This document shows, piece by piece, positions 5,079 to 47,154 of a DNA stretch of 55,157 nucleotides. Every line of letters starts with the position of its first letter. Within the stretch, counting starts at the first letter, position 1. A program made the translations under genes and the position numbers. The notes beneath the pieces were generated by a model, which searched no databases, was not told the origin of the DNA, and worked only from the letters and a program-made list of their open reading frames with translations. The stretch is from a virus (Duplodnaviria; Heunggongvirae; Uroviricota; Caudoviricetes): positions 1-55,157 of IMG/VR virus record IMGVR_UViG_2721755660_000006, one strand, 5' to 3'.

Positions 5079-5255
5079 CGCAATGACTCCATTATGTTAA
5101 TTAACGGAATAATTCTACCATTTTGTGATCTGCGTTACATTTTTGACGCATACAAAATGTATTTATTGATTTATATCAATATACGAAATGTGGTTTTGTC
5201 GGATATTTAAGCCACCGGATGAACCGGACGAGCTAACAAGAATGAGGATTCAAAA

Positions 5256-5537: not shown

Positions 5538-8500
5538 ATGCCCATGATCCTGAGCTTCTCGTAACAAGCGCAAGACCCGCCCTTCTTTCTGCGCCTGTGC
5601 TGGTGTTAGTGTATTCTTCCGTTATTTTTATAGTCACTTTTTGCGCCGTGATCCCTGCGACACAATGGGATACCGTAAATCCGAATTGAGGCGTTGATGC
5701 AGCCCTTACTACTGAATATGTTTTCTTATTGCCATTAATATCAATTGTTACTTTTATGGATGTTGATTGAGAATATTGATAGTAAGTCAGGTGATAAGGA
5801 ATCATCACAAAAACGGTTTTAGAAAGCGAACTCGAAGACGAATCTGTATAAGTTTTAGTAACAGAACGCGATGCACTGCCCGACTGGTCAGGGAATGATG
5901 CTTGAGGTATAAAGTTAGTTGACGCGACATCGCCTACAAAACTTGTAGCCTCTAGCGACCCTTTAAATTTACCGCTATTTGCATACACCGCCCCCCTTAC
6001 CGTTACGTTGTTAAGCTCCGCGCTACCGTTTTTATTAATCATCCAGCCAGCCGAACCGGCTTTATAGTTGGTTGACTGTATTTGCTGTGCAATTTTAGCT
6101 GTAGTGATTGCTGCATCTGCAATTTTAGCTGTCCCTATTGATGCGTCTTTAATAAACGCTTCGCGCACATACATTGCACCATTGGTGACATAGAAAGGCG
6201 TTTGATATGTGCCGTTTGCGGCGGTCATTAACACGAAGCGGTCAACAAGGAAAATACACTGCGATTGAACGTTAGTCCCGCTACCAGTCAGGCCAAGAGA
6301 CATGCCTGTTGCGTATTTTTTGCCGTTGTTGTCGGTGGCAATCTTGATTGACCATGACGCATCAACGTTACCTTTGAAGTCAGTTAACGCTTTCGATGTC
6401 GTCTCGATCGCCGTGGTGTTCCCGTTAACTGTTACTGTAAGCTGATCAATTTTGGTTGATAATGCCTCGTCCGCAGTTGTCATGGTCTGCGACCATTCCG
6501 TGATGCTTGAGTTTACAGCTTCGAAAGACGCTGAGATCTGGCTGAATTTTTCCGCGCTTGATGTTTCATGCGTAGAAAGTGCTGTTGACACTTCAGATAC
6601 TTTCGAATTAATCGTACTGGTAAGCGATGAGTTAAGACTACTTATTGCATCTGTGCGGGCCTTTGTCTCATCTGCAATAGCTTTGTCGATACGGGTCACA
6701 TTGCTTGTAACCTTGCTATCAAGCGTGCTGATGCTTGCATTCACTCCGCTGATAGCTTCGGTTCTTGCGCTCGTCTCATCTGCGATGGCTTTATCAAGAC
6801 GAGAAACACTTGCGTCTGTTTTGTTTTCAAGGCTGCTTATTGAGGCATTTACTCCGCTTATTGCTTCCGTTCTTGCCTGTGTTTCGTTTGCAATAGCTTT
6901 GTCTACTCGCGCTATCTCGCCTTTGATGTTTGAGTCCATCGTGTTCATCTCTGCGGTGATAGTTTCAAGCGCTTCTGCTGTTGCCTGTTTTTCGTCAGCA
7001 ATAACATTGTCTATACGGTCGATTTGCGCTTTAGTCTCACTGCGCCCTTTCTTGTATTGAGCGGTAAGAGTGACGCGCGTATTAGTTTGAGCAAGCGAAT
7101 TATTGATGAGCGCAAGCGATGCGTTTTGTAGGCTTGCTTTTGTCTGTGCCAGTTCGTTATCGACGTTTTCGCTTGATACCTCTAATGAGTCTATTCTTAC
7201 CTCATGTTTGCCTATTTCATCGGCGTTTTCTTCGACTTTTTTATAAAGGTCTTCAGTGTCTTTTTTAAGCGCGTCTGTGTCTGTTTTAAGGTTGTCTGTA
7301 GCTGTTTTAAGGTCGTCTGTAGCTGTTTTAAGGTCTTCAGTTGCACTTTCGATAATGTCTGCGCGGTCGCCAAGATCCTTAATGTCGCTTACCATTTCCT
7401 TGAACTGGTCTGAATTCAGCACGTCTTTAGTGACATAATCGCTGATTTCATCGAAGTTTTCTGTTGGCTGTCCTGATGCTTCTACGAAGTCAGAAACACC
7501 AAAAGCATTACGTGTGCGCACATAAACGTAATAAGTGTGGCCCGTATTCATGCCGCCGAAAGTCCACTGATACCCGCGCCCGGTAAACTGTGCCGCCGTG
7601 GTTATTTTTGCCGGATCTGTGATCTGGTTTTCCCCTGCATAGTAGAATTCGTACGCTGTATCAGTTGTTAGCGTTGTCTTGCTTATCGGGTACACTGTAG
7701 CCTGAAATACACCTGGAACCCAGTTAACGCCTACTGGCGCTGCTGGCGCACCGATAACAAGGTCAACGATACTTTCGGCACCCTTCATGCCAGTATCATT
7801 TCTTCCGCGAACCCCTAAAGAATACACGCCAGCGTCAATGCCATAAAAATCATAACTGTATTTCGTGGTTTCATAGCTTTTAACCACCGCACCATCTGCA
7901 TTATATATGCGGATCTCAAATGTCATACGATGCGTGGTTGTCTGTGTTTCCCATGTGGCGCGGCATTGAATTGTTTCCGATCCAATGTTTACCACCTTCA
8001 GATTTTCAATGTTCGGCACGCGGAAATGATTAAGCGTATCATTGTTGACCTCAAAGATTGCGCCTTCATCGACTATCGCTTGTTTGTTAGGGTCGTGCTG
8101 TGCGGCTTCGATAGTGTATACGCTGTTATTTTCTGTTTCTGCTACACTGGTGATCCGGCACAAAACGGGTTTTGCCACTTCAGTCGATACAGCAAAAACA
8201 GTGCCGTTTCTAATCCATGACGGGGCCGCCGCCAGTGTGATTTTGTTTCCGCTCACCCCGGTGATCTGATGTTTTTTAAACTTGCCATCGCTATCAAGAA
8301 GGCTGATTGTATCCCCAGCGGCAATATATTTAGCATCAACCTTGTCTACAGTTATTACTTTGCCGTTGTTCGCAACGATGCGACCGCCTAAGCGAGCGCC
8401 AGCGCGGTTATTATCGAGGATCTCGATGATATCCCCTGGCGTAAAGTGAATCGCGTCACGGGCCATTTTAAACGTGAATTTTGACGGCTCGCGTTTTGCT

Positions 8501-11790: not shown

Positions 11791-11919
11791 TTTCTCACCT
11801 TCTGATTTTGTGATCTGCGTCACGCCAAATCATACCAAAATGGATTGATCGCGGTTTATACAATATGTATATTTTACTCAAACGGAAGCACAGTTAACAA
11901 AATGGCGCGGAGGTGTGAG

Positions 11920-13359: not shown

Positions 13360-13515
13360 AAGTTACATTTTGTATATATATTTACGCGCTTCTACGCGAA
13401 AAATGAGATCTTCATCACAATGATTATAGCTAGTTTACAAAATGGCTTCACATAGTACGAAACAAGATGTATACATAAAGCAAGAAGAAAGCAGTACCAA
13501 CGAAGGAGGCCCAAA

Positions 13516-24060: not shown

Positions 24061-25444
24061 TATCGCGGCGGGAGGTATTCGCCTGATTATTTTCTTCACC
24101 TTCATCATCGTTTTCCTCGTCTTCCAGTTCTACTTCACTAGCTGGGCCATCGTATCCGGCAGCTTCGCGGATCTCGTCACCGCTAAATATTTCCTCACCA
24201 GTAGCAAGACAAGCCTGATTGATTTGCGCCATTTTGTGTGCCGCTTCCAGTAGTTCGGCTTTTGTCATGGCGTTAAGGTCATCCCATAAAACTGATACAT
24301 CGACTGGCATACTGATAAGGCGGAGATCTGCCATCTTGCGGAATAGTTCCTCAAGCTCGCCTCCAATTTCCTCGCGGCGGGTCATACAGCGATTATTGAA
24401 GTAGCGTAGGTCTTCAGTTGATGCGCGTTCGCCCTGCTGATTCCCAACCAGGATACGCGTCGGGATGTCGATACCAGCGGCGGCAGTTTGCAGGTTGACG
24501 TCATAGGTTGCAGATGGATCGGCTACGGCAGTTACCAGCGGGCTAACACTTGCCCCTTGTAATGCCATCATCACATCATTACCCCTATTCATTTCTGCTG
24601 CTGCCTCGTTGAATTTCTCGCGTAGCTCTGTAACGTCGCAATCGTATGTTGCAGCCAGGGAACGGAAATCAATCTCTTTATCGAACGAGATAGCCAGTTG
24701 ACGAGCGGCATTTTTCAGGAATGACTCACCGCTACCGCCTTCCACTTTCTCCAGCGAAACGAAAGCGTTATAGGACGGCTCAAGGAAAGCGATAGCATCA
24801 TCAGAATAATCACCAAATATAAAGATCCTGTCTGGATGAATCTTTCTTGCTATGGTTTTACTGTTGATCCGCTCCTTGTATTCCCACCATGTCGGAAGGC
24901 CATAGTTTTCTTTATCCTGGTTTTCTTCGAAGTCCTTCGGCGTAAGAGCGCCAGCCCACACAGGGGTGAATTTGGCAATGCCTACGCCTTTTGTTACTGG
25001 CTGATCCCACGGCTGGTTATCTCTGACATGAATTAACAGGCCCGCATAACGACCGATGAGGCGGCGGCGATCGCATTCAGCTATGACGCGCCAGAAACGA
25101 TTATCAAATTGCTTTTTAATTTCTCTTTCCCACGGCGTTTCCGTTTCTGCTTTCTCGTCTTCCGTACCTTCAATCAGCGTTGGCCTGGTGCGCCAGCACG
25201 TAGTAACGATCTTCTCAATAGCACCGTGAGCGATACCACCGCGACGATACAGCTTGTAAAGATCTTCATAGGTGATTTCTTCTTTGAATCCGTATTCACT
25301 CCACGCAGCGTCACGTTTTGCATCAATACCCATTGAGAATGGGTTAGCGGCTGCATAGCGGGCAAAGGCCGCCTGGCGTTGTGACAAGGCAGCATTAACC
25401 GCCAATTCTAAATTGGATGGCATAATGTTTACTCCTGAATACAT
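24050..25444 (-). CDS. Portal protein
   Basis: 464 aa with acidic C-terminal tail, immediately downstream of the large terminase. Confidence 0.75.
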   Translation of the reverse strand: MYSGVNIMPSNLELAVNAALSQRQAAFARYAAANPFSMGIDAKRDAAWSEYGFKEEITYEDLYKLYRRGGIAHGAIEKIVTTCWRTRPTLIEGTEDEKAETETPWEREIKKQFDNRFWRVIAECDRRRLIGRYAGLLIHVRDNQPWDQPVTKGVGIAKFTPVWAGALTPKDFEENQDKENYGLPTWWEYKERINSKTIARKIHPDRIFIFGDYSDDAIAFLEPSYNAFVSLEKVEGGSGESFLKNAARQLAISFDKEIDFRSLAATYDCDVTELREKFNEAAAEMNRGNDVMMALQGASVSPLVTAVADPSATYDVNLQTAAAGIDIPTRILVGNQQGERASTEDLRYFNNRCMTRREEIGGELEELFRKMADLRLISMPVDVSVLWDDLNAMTKAELLEAAHKMAQINQACLATGEEIFSGDEIREAAGYDGPASEVELEDEENDDEGEENNQANTSRRDNAI

Positions 25445-25501
25445 GTTTACGCGTTGCTACGCGAAAAATAGAAAAATTCGTGAGGGGTTGTGAGGCAGAT
25501 T

Positions 25502-37500: not shown

Positions 37501-38102
37501 GCTGCCTTTCTCCTTAAGGCGTCCAATTTAGCCTGATAGATGTTTATTAGCTCCTTACATTCTGCGATCGTCCATTTATGCGTATCATTGTTGTTTTCCA
37601 GTGCTACCACCCTTGCGAGGCCAATTTTTCGAATCAGTGCCGGGCGATACCCTCCTATGTTTCCGTCTAATGTCTGGTTGCAGTGCCTGCATTGTTTATG
37701 GCAATTATCCTCGTTAAAGCGAAGGTGTCCTGCGGCGGCAACCGTCCTGTAATGGCCCGCATCCCACCCGCATTGCTCACCGTAGTAAGTCCCGCAGGAT
37801 ATACACGGCAAGCGCGCGTCACGTTCGCGGATATAGGCGTTGAATACGTTTTGAACTTGCTTGATCCAGTAGCTGCGCGGATTTAACTGTTTCCGCTTCC
37901 GGTTGCGTTCTTCCCGCTGGCTATCGCGGCGTTTCTTCCGTTCCATCGCCTTCATAGCCTTTTCACGGTCGCGGCATAGCTGGTCAAACTTCAGTTCTTC
38001 CAGACATTCATCGCTGCACCACGTTTGATTATGATATTTAGGCTCAAAAAAAACGCCGCAGCACTTGCAACGGCGTCTTATGGGTTTTTTAGGGTTTTGC
38101 AT
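37497..38102 (-). CDS. ninG: NinG (Rap) recombination-associated protein
   Basis: Close match by eye to lambda NinG (RRRCK, PRSYWIKQ, RDLPCISCGT, DAGHYRT, LRFNE-N-HKQC); start refined to MQNPKK. Confidence 0.85.
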   Translation of the reverse strand: MQNPKKPIRRRCKCCGVFFEPKYHNQTWCSDECLEELKFDQLCRDREKAMKAMERKKRRDSQREERNRKRKQLNPRSYWIKQVQNVFNAYIRERDARLPCISCGTYYGEQCGWDAGHYRTVAAAGHLRFNEDNCHKQCRHCNQTLDGNIGGYRPALIRKIGLARVVALENNNDTHKWTIAECKELINIYQAKLDALRRKAA

Positions 38103-38113
38103 AAAAACCACCC

Positions 38114-38293
38114 CGATTATTTTTGATTCTCTGTTTCGTTCAGCCTTTCGGCGTGTCCGGCCATTAGCCAATGTTCTAAGCATTCGTTGCACTCGTTACA
38201 GCCTCCTTTCTTCGTGCTGCATACATTGCACATTGCACGCATAACGCTTTCTCGTTCATAGTCGTCATGCCATTGGTAATTATCAAAAGGCAT
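38114..38293 (-). CDS. Cys-rich small protein (zinc-finger-like)
   Basis: 59-codon ORF not in the track frame; AAGGAGAG Shine-Dalgarno; CNVCSTKKGGCNECNEC. Confidence 0.5.
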
Positions 38294-38452
38294 AATGCTC
38301 TCTCCTTTTCAGGTGATTTCTACGCATTTCAGCGCTGCCGGATTTTTAAAGAGCATTTTGTTTGCTTGAAGTATACAAAATGGATACGTGCTAACAAGGT
38401 GTAAAGCGCCATTATGTGACATTCATCACACAATGACGCCATTTTGTAAACT

Positions 38453-39217
38453 TCAGTCCGGCAAAACGCGGTTGAGCGTAGTACGATTGATGGCCCGGTC
38501 GTTAGCCAGGAATACAGCACGGGCGAAGCCACGCGGCGTTAGTGAGCGGATCATCTTTGTTCGCTTTGATTTTCCGCCTAACTTCGCGTGCTGCTTACTG
38601 TCTTCCCATTCATCTGGCATCGGCACAGGACGGAATAGCGGCTGCTTAAATCCATTCCCGCACCAAATACAAGTTTTCTTCGTGTAGGCGTCGCGGTCGG
38701 CAATGTATTCCGGGAAAGCGGGATGCTTATCATCTTCCGGCAGGTAGCCACCGTAAGCGCACGGATTGAAGATAAAATCCGGTTTACGCCATAACGTTGA
38801 CAGTGCGCCCACCGGATTTTCCACCATCCACGGCACGTTATGCATATTCGCCAGTTTTTCTACCAGTTTTGCGTTATGCGCCGCCTTCACCTGGAAGTCA
38901 GGGTCTTTTTTCCGTTTATCAGCGAACCAGCGAGCGCCTGAAACGGCGAGATTGTCGCATGGAGGAAAGCCCAGGATAATGTCAGGATCTGGATATACAG
39001 ACAATTCAGGGGAGAACATTACCAGAAAATGGCTATCAATCCAGACGTTAACATATTCAATATTTGGATGAATTATTTTTACCCCGTCATAATCACCGTG
39101 ATTAGCGCCGTCATAGTTGAAGCAATAACATTTATAACCAGCGTCCGCCCAATCTTTAACGGCGTACCCGCTGCCGTCATACAGCGACCACACCACCCAA
39201 TTTCTAATCCCGCTCAT
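38453..39217 (-). CDS. Putative DNA cytosine-5 methyltransferase-like protein (short form)
   Basis: 254 aa; motif-like segments YDGSGYA, GFPPCDNLAVSG (Pro-Cys) and MVENPVGA (ENV-like). Confidence 0.5.
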   Translation of the reverse strand: MSGIRNWVVWSLYDGSGYAVKDWADAGYKCYCFNYDGANHGDYDGVKIIHPNIEYVNVWIDSHFLVMFSPELSVYPDPDIILGFPPCDNLAVSGARWFADKRKKDPDFQVKAAHNAKLVEKLANMHNVPWMVENPVGALSTLWRKPDFIFNPCAYGGYLPEDDKHPAFPEYIADRDAYTKKTCIWCGNGFKQPLFRPVPMPDEWEDSKQHAKLGGKSKRTKMIRSLTPRGFARAVFLANDRAINRTTLNRVLPD

Positions 39218-41933: not shown

Positions 41934-42031
41934 TTTGCTTCCTCCGCACCGTAAACCTTTTGATTTTGGCTTACAAAACGGACATGCGATCACAATACAT
42001 AATGTATATTTATGTAATCGGAATCACTCGG

Positions 42032-45409: not shown

Positions 45410-45661
45410 TTAATGATAGCGGACTTTATCCAGGGGTTTTTCCCCTAAATGTCGTGGTTGCGTTGCGTGGTAGTAGCTGCCGCTTTCATTTTCCGTATAC
45501 CATTTTACTGATCCTTTGCGACGTTCTTTAATGCTATTTGGTTTGCATCTTTCCTCGTTTGCAAATCGAATAGCTTTATCCACATTGTCTGTTTTATTGA
45601 TTGCAGGTGATGATTTTCTTTCGTTTTCTCTTTTTATCCTTCTGCGTTCCCTGGCATTCAT
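45410..45661 (-). CDS. N-like antitermination protein candidate (arginine-rich motif)
   Basis: MNARERRRIKRENERK resembles the lambda N arginine-rich motif (MDAQTRRRERRAEKQ); first gene leftward of the cI-like gene. Confidence 0.45.
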   Translation of the reverse strand: MNARERRRIKRENERKSSPAINKTDNVDKAIRFANEERCKPNSIKERRKGSVKWYTENESGSYYHATQPRHLGEKPLDKVRYH

Positions 45662-46200
45662 TTTGCTATCACATTTACCATATATAATTGTAACGCTCAT
45701 AATCTGATCTCCGTATATCCTTGATGATACTTAATAAAAAATCATCTTCGTTAATTGCCGCACTTCCAGCGGCTGACCAGATTGTTAATGAGCGGCTTAA
45801 CATCTTTCAACTAATCCCGCAATCATCGCCGTTCCCGGCGTGACCTTGCTCACTCCAAGCAAGCTGACTCGTCGCCTTGCGTGCGGTTTCGTGGGGGATG
45901 TAACGCTTTAAACACCCCATGCGCCTTGTTATCAGTGCCGCTTTCGGTCCCCAATCGGGGAGTTACTCCACGGTTGACAAGGTGTTAAGCCTGATTTTTA
46001 AAGTGCCAGGAAGTTGCTTTTGTTACCTGCGCCCTTCCTTTGACTCGCAATATACGCCCCGTAAAACATCGAGTCAATCCATTTTGTATACTTTTTTAAA
46101 ATATTTTATATGTCATTGATATTTAAATAATAAATAACGTTTTCTGTTTACGTTTTGGTGTTTTCCAGGCAAAGAAAAGCCGCCATTCGGCGGCTAATGT
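45662..46200 (-). promoter_or_regulatory. cI-to-N intergenic region (candidate pL/nutL-type region)
   Basis: About 540-bp non-coding gap between the repressor and the N-like gene; inferred from lambdoid organisation only. Confidence 0.3.
46170..46198 (-). terminator. Rho-independent terminator after the cI-like gene
   Basis: GCCGCCGAATGGCGGC hairpin followed by TTTTCTTTG on the minus strand. Confidence 0.65.
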
Positions 46201-46848: not shown

Positions 46849-46869
46849 GTCGCTACCCTATAACCTCAA

Positions 46870-46980
46870 AAAGTTTGATGCAAGTCACAAAACGTGTATT
46901 TTAAGCCTTGATCTTAAAATTCCATTTTGTAAACTTGCAGACAAGGTAAGGCCATACTTGCAAAGACGCAAGGAAAAAGA
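46870..46980. promoter_or_regulatory. Operator-like palindromes in the repressor/cro-position intergenic region
   Basis: Repeated half-site ACTTGC/GCAAGT: GCAAGTCAC near 46873, ACTTGCAGACAAGG near 46930, ACTTGCAAAGACGCAAGG near 46959. Confidence 0.4.
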
Positions 46981-47154
46981 TAACGGAAGGCACAAAAAGG
47001 CACTTACCTTAAGCTCTTTAAAAATCCGGTGTCGCTGCGAAGCGAAAAACAAATATCACGCAACGGCGGGATCTGTTGAGCGGTCAGTCACTGCTATCTA
47101 ATGCTAATGGGATGCCCGCCCGCGCGTTCACTCTAACCATAGGAGAAAAACAAG

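Follow-up and report, generated by a model that had tools for sequence, protein, structure and literature searches.

A CRP-like palindrome at the t4/nutR2 locus of an mEpimmI prophage: a possible repressor-controlled duplicate of PL-nutL

The third nut site of phage mEp021, nutR2, was reportedly defined in a primary paper on this phage by Valencia-Toxqui et al. in 2023. Among human gut isolates, the mEpimmI (mEp021-like) phages reportedly match lambdoid phages in frequency, and having three nut sites has been presented as a distinguishing oddity of the group. According to the part of Negrete-Mendez et al. (2025, PMC11893012) on which we draw, the N-like antiterminator of mEp021, Gp17, acts on all three sites, the third, nutR2, lies downstream of a methyltransferase gene, nutL and nutR2 resemble each other most, and a terminator, t4, is listed as predicted. 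That part of the publication describes terminators and nut sites only, with no operators, internal promoter or recurrent 13-mer of the kind dealt with below, and its supplement holds no nut sequences.

The lambda N-nut system (nutL/nutR, boxA-boxB, tR1) resembles the locus described here in several respects: an arginine-rich N-like protein, a boxA near the rrn/lambda consensus, a short boxB with an A-rich loop, and a terminator downstream. It differs in that there are three nut sites here instead of two, in that the boxB loop is UGAAAU and not GAAAA, and in the placement of nutR2, which is mid-operon, about 7 kb from PR and just some 9 nt past a putative promoter start.

The window analysed here, a single stretch of 55,157 nucleotides, is the mEpimmI prophage of E. 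coli UMNK88, one of the 48 mEpimmI genomes covered by the same publication (PMC11893012). The locus of interest is a 159-bp gap (38294-38452) which is truly intergenic and has minus-strand genes on both sides, as an initial annotation of the window had proposed in placing it upstream of a Cys-rich gene within a leftward operon. The gap is 100% identical to the UMNK88 chromosome over a 281-nt query. By nucleotide comparison, the surrounding 3-kb region is 99.9% identical to Escherichia phage MagusPhagus and 86-91% identical to the Mexican E. coli phages mEp554, mEp013, mEp010, mEp044, mEp515 and mEp021. Past the gap, the minus-strand genes run from ninF-like through ninG and a rusA-type resolvase to the Q antiterminator. 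The orthologous locus in mEp021 has the same flanking genes (methyltransferase and ninF-like), the hairpin annotated there as TERM_4, and a boxA and boxB resembling those of nutL. The gap is the already published t4/nutR2 locus of mEpimmI phages, and, taking the main reading as a whole, we consider it rather probable that an mEpimmI/mEp021-type prophage has here the control region for its early-rightward operon, which runs leftward in the window. Apparently new are the putative assignment of operators, a predicted internal promoter, and a paralogy with PL-nutL that would account for the third nut site.

On the minus strand the order of elements is the methyltransferase stop codon, motif copy A, the hairpin, TTT with a variable stretch, TTGTTA, a 16-nt spacer, TATACT, boxA, boxB, a ribosome binding site and the ninF ATG (Table 1). 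Conservation was judged from 34 distinct orthologous sequences of the gap. A 37-residue 'hypothetical protein' annotated in MagusPhagus (38309-38422, minus strand) has its start codon in the hypervariable loop of the hairpin and loses its frame in orthologues, and is likely a gene-caller artefact. Comparison with Rfam gave no family at gathering score anywhere in the window, and only chance-level matches in the gap.

Table 1. Positions of features in and around the gap, and of related features elsewhere in the window
Feature	Position	Strand	Remarks
DNA methyltransferase gene	38453-39217	minus	phrog_757; upstream of the gap; UGA stop at 38455-38453
Motif copy A, TTACAAAATGGCG (within GTTTACAAAATGG, 38439-38451)	38437-38449	minus	2 nt past the methyltransferase stop; at about -86 to -74 relative to the predicted start of P_R2
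Hairpin GGCGUCAUUGUGUGAU-GAAU-GUCACAUAAUGGCGCU	38405-38440	minus	16-bp stem, 4-nt loop; predicted terminator t4
X2, TCACACAATGACG	38426-38438	plus	inverted partner of X1; other arm of the hairpin
CRP-consensus-like core TGTGA-N6-TCACA	38415-38430		apex of the hairpin
X1, TCACATAATGGCG	38407-38419	minus	degenerate operator-like 13-mer; 3' arm of the hairpin
-35-like hexamer of P_R2, TTGTTA	38392-38397	minus	TTGT invariant, flanking columns variable (34 orthologues)
Motif copy B, ATACAAAATGGAT	38373-38385	plus	about -22 to -10 of P_R2, in spacer and -10; conserved; placed as in PL
-10-like hexamer of P_R2, TATACT	38370-38375	minus	invariant in 34 orthologues; predicted start at about 38363
boxA of nutR2, UGCUCUUUAAAAA	38343-38355	minus	near-invariant in 34 orthologues
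boxB of nutR2, GCGC-UGAAAU-GCGU	38322-38335	minus	7 nt after boxA; near-invariant
ninF-like Cys-rich gene (58 residues)	38117-38293	minus	phrog_30170; 'putative NinF' in mEp021; first gene after the gap, ATG at 38293
Terminator-like hairpin, 7-bp stem and T8, tail TTTTTTTT	38046-38072	minus	within the 5' end of ninG, some 250 nt beyond nutR2; strong
N-like gene (arginine-rich protein)	45410-45700		phrog_271
nutR1	45757-45794	minus	upstream of the N-like gene
PR, TTGACT-17-TATATT	46049-46091	minus	10/12; downstream of the repressor gene and its terminator t1 (46171-46195)
PR operator-like TTACGGGGCGTAT	46052-46064		in spacer and -10; 25 bp from the first PR site; revealed by the degenerate pattern
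PR operator-like ATACAAAATGGAT	46077-46089		abuts -35
Paralogous module	46874-47045	plus	dyad, PL, motif in spacer, nutL
Dyad of the PL module, TTTGATGCAAGTCACA	46874-46889		9/10 CRP-like
PL, TTGATC-16-TAAACT	46908-46913 and 46930-46935	plus	motif in spacer
nutL	boxA 47012-47024, boxB 47032-47045	plus	

The consensus of boxA is YGCUCUUUA(ACA), and the boxA in the gap lies close to it; the boxB that follows has a purine/A-rich loop. From the published description of its location and from the similarity of boxA and boxB, we infer that 38322-38355 corresponds to nutR2. Both elements lie just outside the span marked by the initial annotation, which had missed this nut site, 20-50 bp further downstream on the transcribed strand, together with the 16-bp extension of the stem (38405-38440) and the PL/nutL paralogue (46874-47045). 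The closing pair of boxB shows compensatory change: in place of G.U, four sequences have C-G, with both sides altered, and another four have A-U. The nutR2 region forms a 78% complementary repeat with plus-strand 47013-47049, the nutL copy, and this related nut copy at nutL (47012-47045) agrees with the published view of nutL and nutR2 as the two sites most alike. The terminator-like hairpin inside ninG is a candidate for a terminator overcome by Gp17 loaded at nutR2; in mEp554, the ARNold terminator T7 falls within the same gene.

The hairpin between the methyltransferase stop and the nut site is real and biased towards the sense strand. Folded as RNA, the minus strand has a free energy of -23.3 kcal/mol (z -5.7) and the plus strand one of only -12; the base of the stem is GGCG/CGCC. 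The difference comes from three positions that form G.U in the sense RNA and A.C in its complement. The mEp021 GenBank record (MH706966) carries 'terminator TERM_4; score=79' directly after the methyltransferase gene, reading GCGTCATTGCGTGATGTGGATCACATAATGGCGC, and the hairpin in the window is its orthologue, since it has the same position and differs at 5 of 34 bases (a T/C in the stem and four bases in the loop region). Among the 34 orthologues all 16 base pairs of the stem are conserved and the 4-nt loop is hypervariable; a C.A mismatch is seen in 20 of the 34, at the position that turns TGTGA into CGTGA. The T-run on the 3' side of the stem amounts to TTT in the window, to four or five T in most orthologues and to the poor T-tract UAUUCACC in mEp021, and it is because of the short TTT tail that a terminator scan made no call in the window. 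That the hairpin acts as a terminator is a prediction. We found no two-sided compensatory changes in the stem among the 34 orthologues, so that selection at the RNA level can be taken only as a possibility. In distant relatives of the methyltransferase (45-61% identity) the downstream region is unrelated to the gap, so the covariation test could not be extended to them.

The palindrome at the apex of this hairpin had been described as bracketed by an inverted pair of a recurrent motif. Both members of the pair are present, the right-hand one, CCATTTTGTAAAC, at 38439-38451 as given, and the left-hand one, TACAAAATGG, at 38374-38383, one base away from the 38373-38382 first assigned to it. With at most one mismatch, TACAAAATGG is found 25 times in the window against 5.45 expected, a count reached by 0 of 100 shuffles; the 13-mer GTWTACAAAATGG has seven exact copies in the window against 0.01 expected, all of them intergenic. 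The motif matches a 13-bp pseudo-dyad, WTACR-N3-YGKNN, and in the window it is present at PL, PR and some eight further promoter regions; matches to this degenerate pattern number 63, compared with 29 +/- 6 in shuffles. Exact copies sit at junctions where transcription units begin, at positions conserved in mEp021, and two placements recur. First, a forward copy abuts the -35 at PR (GTATACAAAATGGA-TTGACT-17-TATATT) and at the 11.8k, 13.4k, 16.6k and 32.1k junctions. Second, a reverse copy fills the spacer to the -10 at PL, at P_R2 and at the 16.6k and 32.1k junctions. Within the gap, copies A and B have their centres at 38443 and 38379, 64 bp apart, and copy A is conserved in most of the 34 orthologues. 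The two arms of the hairpin, X1 and X2, have two to three mismatches to the 10-mer and are not significant alone.

What could bind such a motif? Rep021 is a CI-like repressor with an HTH_3 domain and an S24 peptidase domain. Homologues of Rep021 fall into five groups that are 38-55% identical to it, have the same or a similar recognition helix and are encoded in classical divergent cro/repressor arrangements. In each of the five groups the 92-124-bp cro-rep gap carries two to three matches to WTACR-N3-YGKNN, and in four of the five the spacing of the elements is about 33 and 26 bp. The elements of one group read ATACATTTTGTAT, ATACGTTATGTGT and ATACAGCTTGTAT, and in the gap of a Citrobacter-type prophage the element ATACAAAATGGAA is the very motif of the window. 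The sister phage L157 encodes a repressor with an identical recognition helix; there the motif abuts the -35 of PR and two perfect copies lie upstream of the ANT antirepressor gene. Given the presence of the motif in the cro-repressor gaps of Rep homologues, we read it as most likely the operator of Rep021. Against this we count that most of the evidence comes from phages which share ancestry at these positions, so that conservation could partly reflect descent. Literature searches, including searches with sequence strings, found no Rep021 footprint or relevant report of the motif; a scan of species-representative genomes with a Rep alignment found nothing, and a protein search with the Rep N-terminal domain alone returned fragments only.

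Two other sources of the motif were considered. A bare promoter element (an UP subsite or spacer) with no binding protein is less likely, given that the full 13-mer is conserved where A-richness would suffice and that other phages also have it in their repressor-cro gaps. In an informal comparison of consensus sequences, none of the host-factor sites for Fis, IHF, OmpR, PhoP, TyrR, DnaA or LexA fits.

The putative operators share a number of features with those of the CI repressors of lambda, 434 and P22: an HTH_3 plus S24 repressor, pseudo-dyads in which a strong half is paired with a weak one, spacings of 24-26 or 33 bp between neighbouring sites, which overlap a -35 or -10, and a rep gene that is apparently leaderless and read from a PRM-like promoter. 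In contrast, the element is 13 bp here against 14-18 bp, and the predicted sites, at least ten in number, are dispersed at promoters across the genome beyond the immunity region, which is reminiscent of the C1 operators of phage P1. As to the rep promoter itself, a PRM-like TTGCAT-17-TAGGGT on the minus strand (46855-46883) ends 7 nt before the rep ATG, where there is no Shine-Dalgarno sequence. The rep mRNA is probably leaderless, as that of lambda cI, and the 9/10 CRP-like dyad at 46874-46889 overlaps the PRM-like -35.

Between the hairpin and nutR2 lies a promoter-like element, which we call P_R2. Its hexamers, TTGTTA-16-TATACT, match the sigma-70 consensus at 9 of 12 positions, which alone is not significant (6 such matches found in 2 kb against 3.1 expected). 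The pattern of variation is another matter: five spacer columns beside the -35 vary freely and the spacer length of 16 is kept in 33 of the 34 orthologues, and hexamers conserved around a free spacer of fixed length are a stronger argument for a promoter than the consensus score. The 3' part of the 16-nt spacer is copy B read in reverse, CCATTTTG. The same arrangement is found at PL. Both modules have, in order, a dyad, 17-18 bp, a -35, a 16-nt spacer containing CCATTTTG, a -10 and boxA-boxB, and at PL too the hexamers are conserved and the spacer is variable in 24 relatives, the PL -35 being TTGATC in the window and TTGACC in relatives. We conclude that P_R2 is probably an internal sigma-70 promoter. 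A promoter directly upstream of nutR2 would also explain the third nut site, as transcripts from P_R2 never see nutR1.

Alternatively, the gap may consist of the terminator t4 and a nutR2 that serves only to re-load Gp17 on PR transcripts, with no internal promoter and with the motif copies as relics or in an unrelated role. The TERM_4 annotation is as expected under this scheme, as are the published model, which in the part we draw on has only terminators and nut sites (PMC11893012), and the sub-significant consensus match of P_R2. It nevertheless leaves unexplained the invariant TTGT and TATACT islands with a half-variable spacer between them, the paralogy with PL at the level of a whole module, and the presence here of two copies of a motif found otherwise at promoters (PL, PR and the 11.8k, 13.4k, 16.6k and 32.1k junctions). 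We regard it as unlikely.

We now return to the palindrome. The sequence TGTGACATTCATCACA is where the initial annotation had it, and its TGTGA-N6-TCACA core is perfect at 10 of 10 positions and the only exact one in the window, against 0.02 expected. A genuine CRP site, at which cAMP-CRP would activate (class I) an internal promoter or tie the early operon to carbon status, is suggested by more than the core. Six CRP-like sites with at most one mismatch are present in the window, against 1.43 expected. The centre of the palindrome, 38422.5, is 59.5-61.5 bp upstream of the predicted P_R2 start and hence class I-compatible, as in the lac P1 class I site of E. coli, which is centred at -61.5 and which the palindrome resembles in its core and in its distance of about 60 bp to the predicted start; the paralogous PL has its 9/10 CRP-like site at about -60.5, and a divergent subgroup of orthologues also keeps the perfect core. 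However, only 14 of the 34 orthologues have that core, the other 20 reading CGTGA (9/10), and the flanks are poor: by our own count 13 of 22 positions match the 22-bp textbook CRP consensus. Unlike the lac site, the core is embedded in a 36-nt hairpin-forming palindrome, whose complementarity and conservation reach 8 bp past any CRP footprint on each side, and the other CRP-like matches in the window lie at inconsistent distances from promoters.

There is also another source for the half-sites. The operator family admits TCACA or TCACG as its left half, as seen at the second PR site of relatives, TCACAGGGCGTAT, which has the same form as X1, and at the rep-proximal site of L157, CCATTTTGTGAC, which is TCACAAAATGGCG in reverse complement and again of the same form. 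The TGTGA/TCACA core may tentatively be viewed as two operator left halves placed back to back, tentatively because the matches in the hairpin arms are statistically weak. With the 16-bp complementarity, an outer GC-rich stem as well conserved as the core, four or five T after the stem in most orthologues, CGTGA in 20 of 34 orthologues and a TCACA that fits the operator family, CRP, to which the initial annotation had pointed, is not supported as the explanation of the palindrome; all features can be accounted for without it. The palindrome is probably a look-alike within lambda-style phage regulation, and CRP control at this site seems to us quite unlikely, though it would hardly surprise us if CRP bound this particular allele in vitro. 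The idea that a CRP-like dyad might be the general form of the Rep operator was also considered and set aside, there being no such dyad near PR. For scans of this kind, the lesson is that a perfect CRP core within a longer hairpin beside phage operators is poor evidence for CRP control.

The gap had further been proposed to act as an internal promoter or as an attenuation control point. An internal promoter or termination control point fits the TERM_4-type hairpin, the nutR2 region and the conserved sigma-70 promoter-like element, whereas classical attenuation does not hold up, the alternative RNA pairings being without covariation. In its most explicit form, an attenuation-type RNA switch would have copies A and B, and a third copy, C, beside boxA, pair in the read-through RNA so as to enclose or expose t4 and boxA. 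The minimum free energy fold of the 141-nt read-through RNA does pair A with B over 16-17 bp (-44.3 kcal/mol, z -4.6), and RNAalifold predicts a B-C helix in which all one-sided changes are G.U-compatible. Against these predictions, the A-B helix lacks covariation and scores the same as shuffles, and in 4-11 orthologues its outer pairs are lost with no compensating change; elsewhere the motif is found equally in untranscribed positions and in both orientations. We consider such a switch very improbable.

Returning to P_R2 as a repressor-controlled promoter, its part in the life cycle might be as follows. In a lysogen, Rep021 bound to its operators would keep P_R2 shut, as it would PL and PR. 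After induction, transcripts from PR, modified by Gp17 and Nus factors at nutR1, would read through t4, and transcripts from P_R2, which lack nutR1, would acquire Gp17 at nutR2, pass the ninG terminator and reach Q. That Rep binds the motif, that P_R2 fires and that t4 terminates we infer from the sequence. In its full form the proposal is tentative, if a serious possibility: Rep021 would run a dispersed regulon of at least ten operators, WTACA-AAA-TGKNN, at PL, at PR, at promoters of reverse-oriented accessory operons within the tail genes and at P_R2; P_R2 would be a duplicate of PL-nutL and the reason for the third nut site; and the palindrome would consist of back-to-back half-sites doubling as t4. 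If the gap does hold a repressor-controlled promoter copied from PL, the three nut sites would have a simple mechanistic explanation, and there would be a first operator consensus for Rep021 along with a testable map of its regulon.

Several minor observations were made elsewhere in the window. In the early-operon gap at 41960-42010 (minus strand) CCGTTTTGTAAG lies 24 bp from a perfect dyad, ATACATTATGTAT, and is arranged much as at PL and P_R2 (TTGTGA-16-TAAGCC); this is possibly a further repressor-controlled internal promoter. Within the PR leader (about 45800-46000, minus strand), a stretch of about 230 nt that is rich in GC and in hairpins separates a boxA-like sequence at 45993-46006 from nutR1 (45757-45794); it has no Rfam match. 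The stretch is present in most relatives and cleanly absent in others, where boxA reads TGCTCTTTAACAA.

A perfect FNR-type site, TTGAT-N4-ATCAA, lies at 5166-5179 (plus strand) upstream of a lipoprotein gene of the superinfection-exclusion type, and adjoins a perfect operator dyad, ATACAAAATGTAT, at 5150-5162. A 19-nt repeat with GATC, ATTTTGTGATCTGCGT(T/C)AC, occurs at 5120-5138 and 11805-11823, at two junctions between tail genes and reverse accessory operons, both copies being 9/10 CRP-like. A 34-nt repeat at 13371-13404 and 25436-25469, 85% identical between its copies and ending in TTTACGCG(C/T)T(T/G)CTACGCGAAAAAT, is a small hairpin-forming element. Finally, tandem repeats of 108 nt (four copies) and 21 nt (five copies) at 6641-7350 lie within the tail-fibre J gene, consistent with the C-terminal repeats mentioned in the part of PMC11893012 on which we draw.
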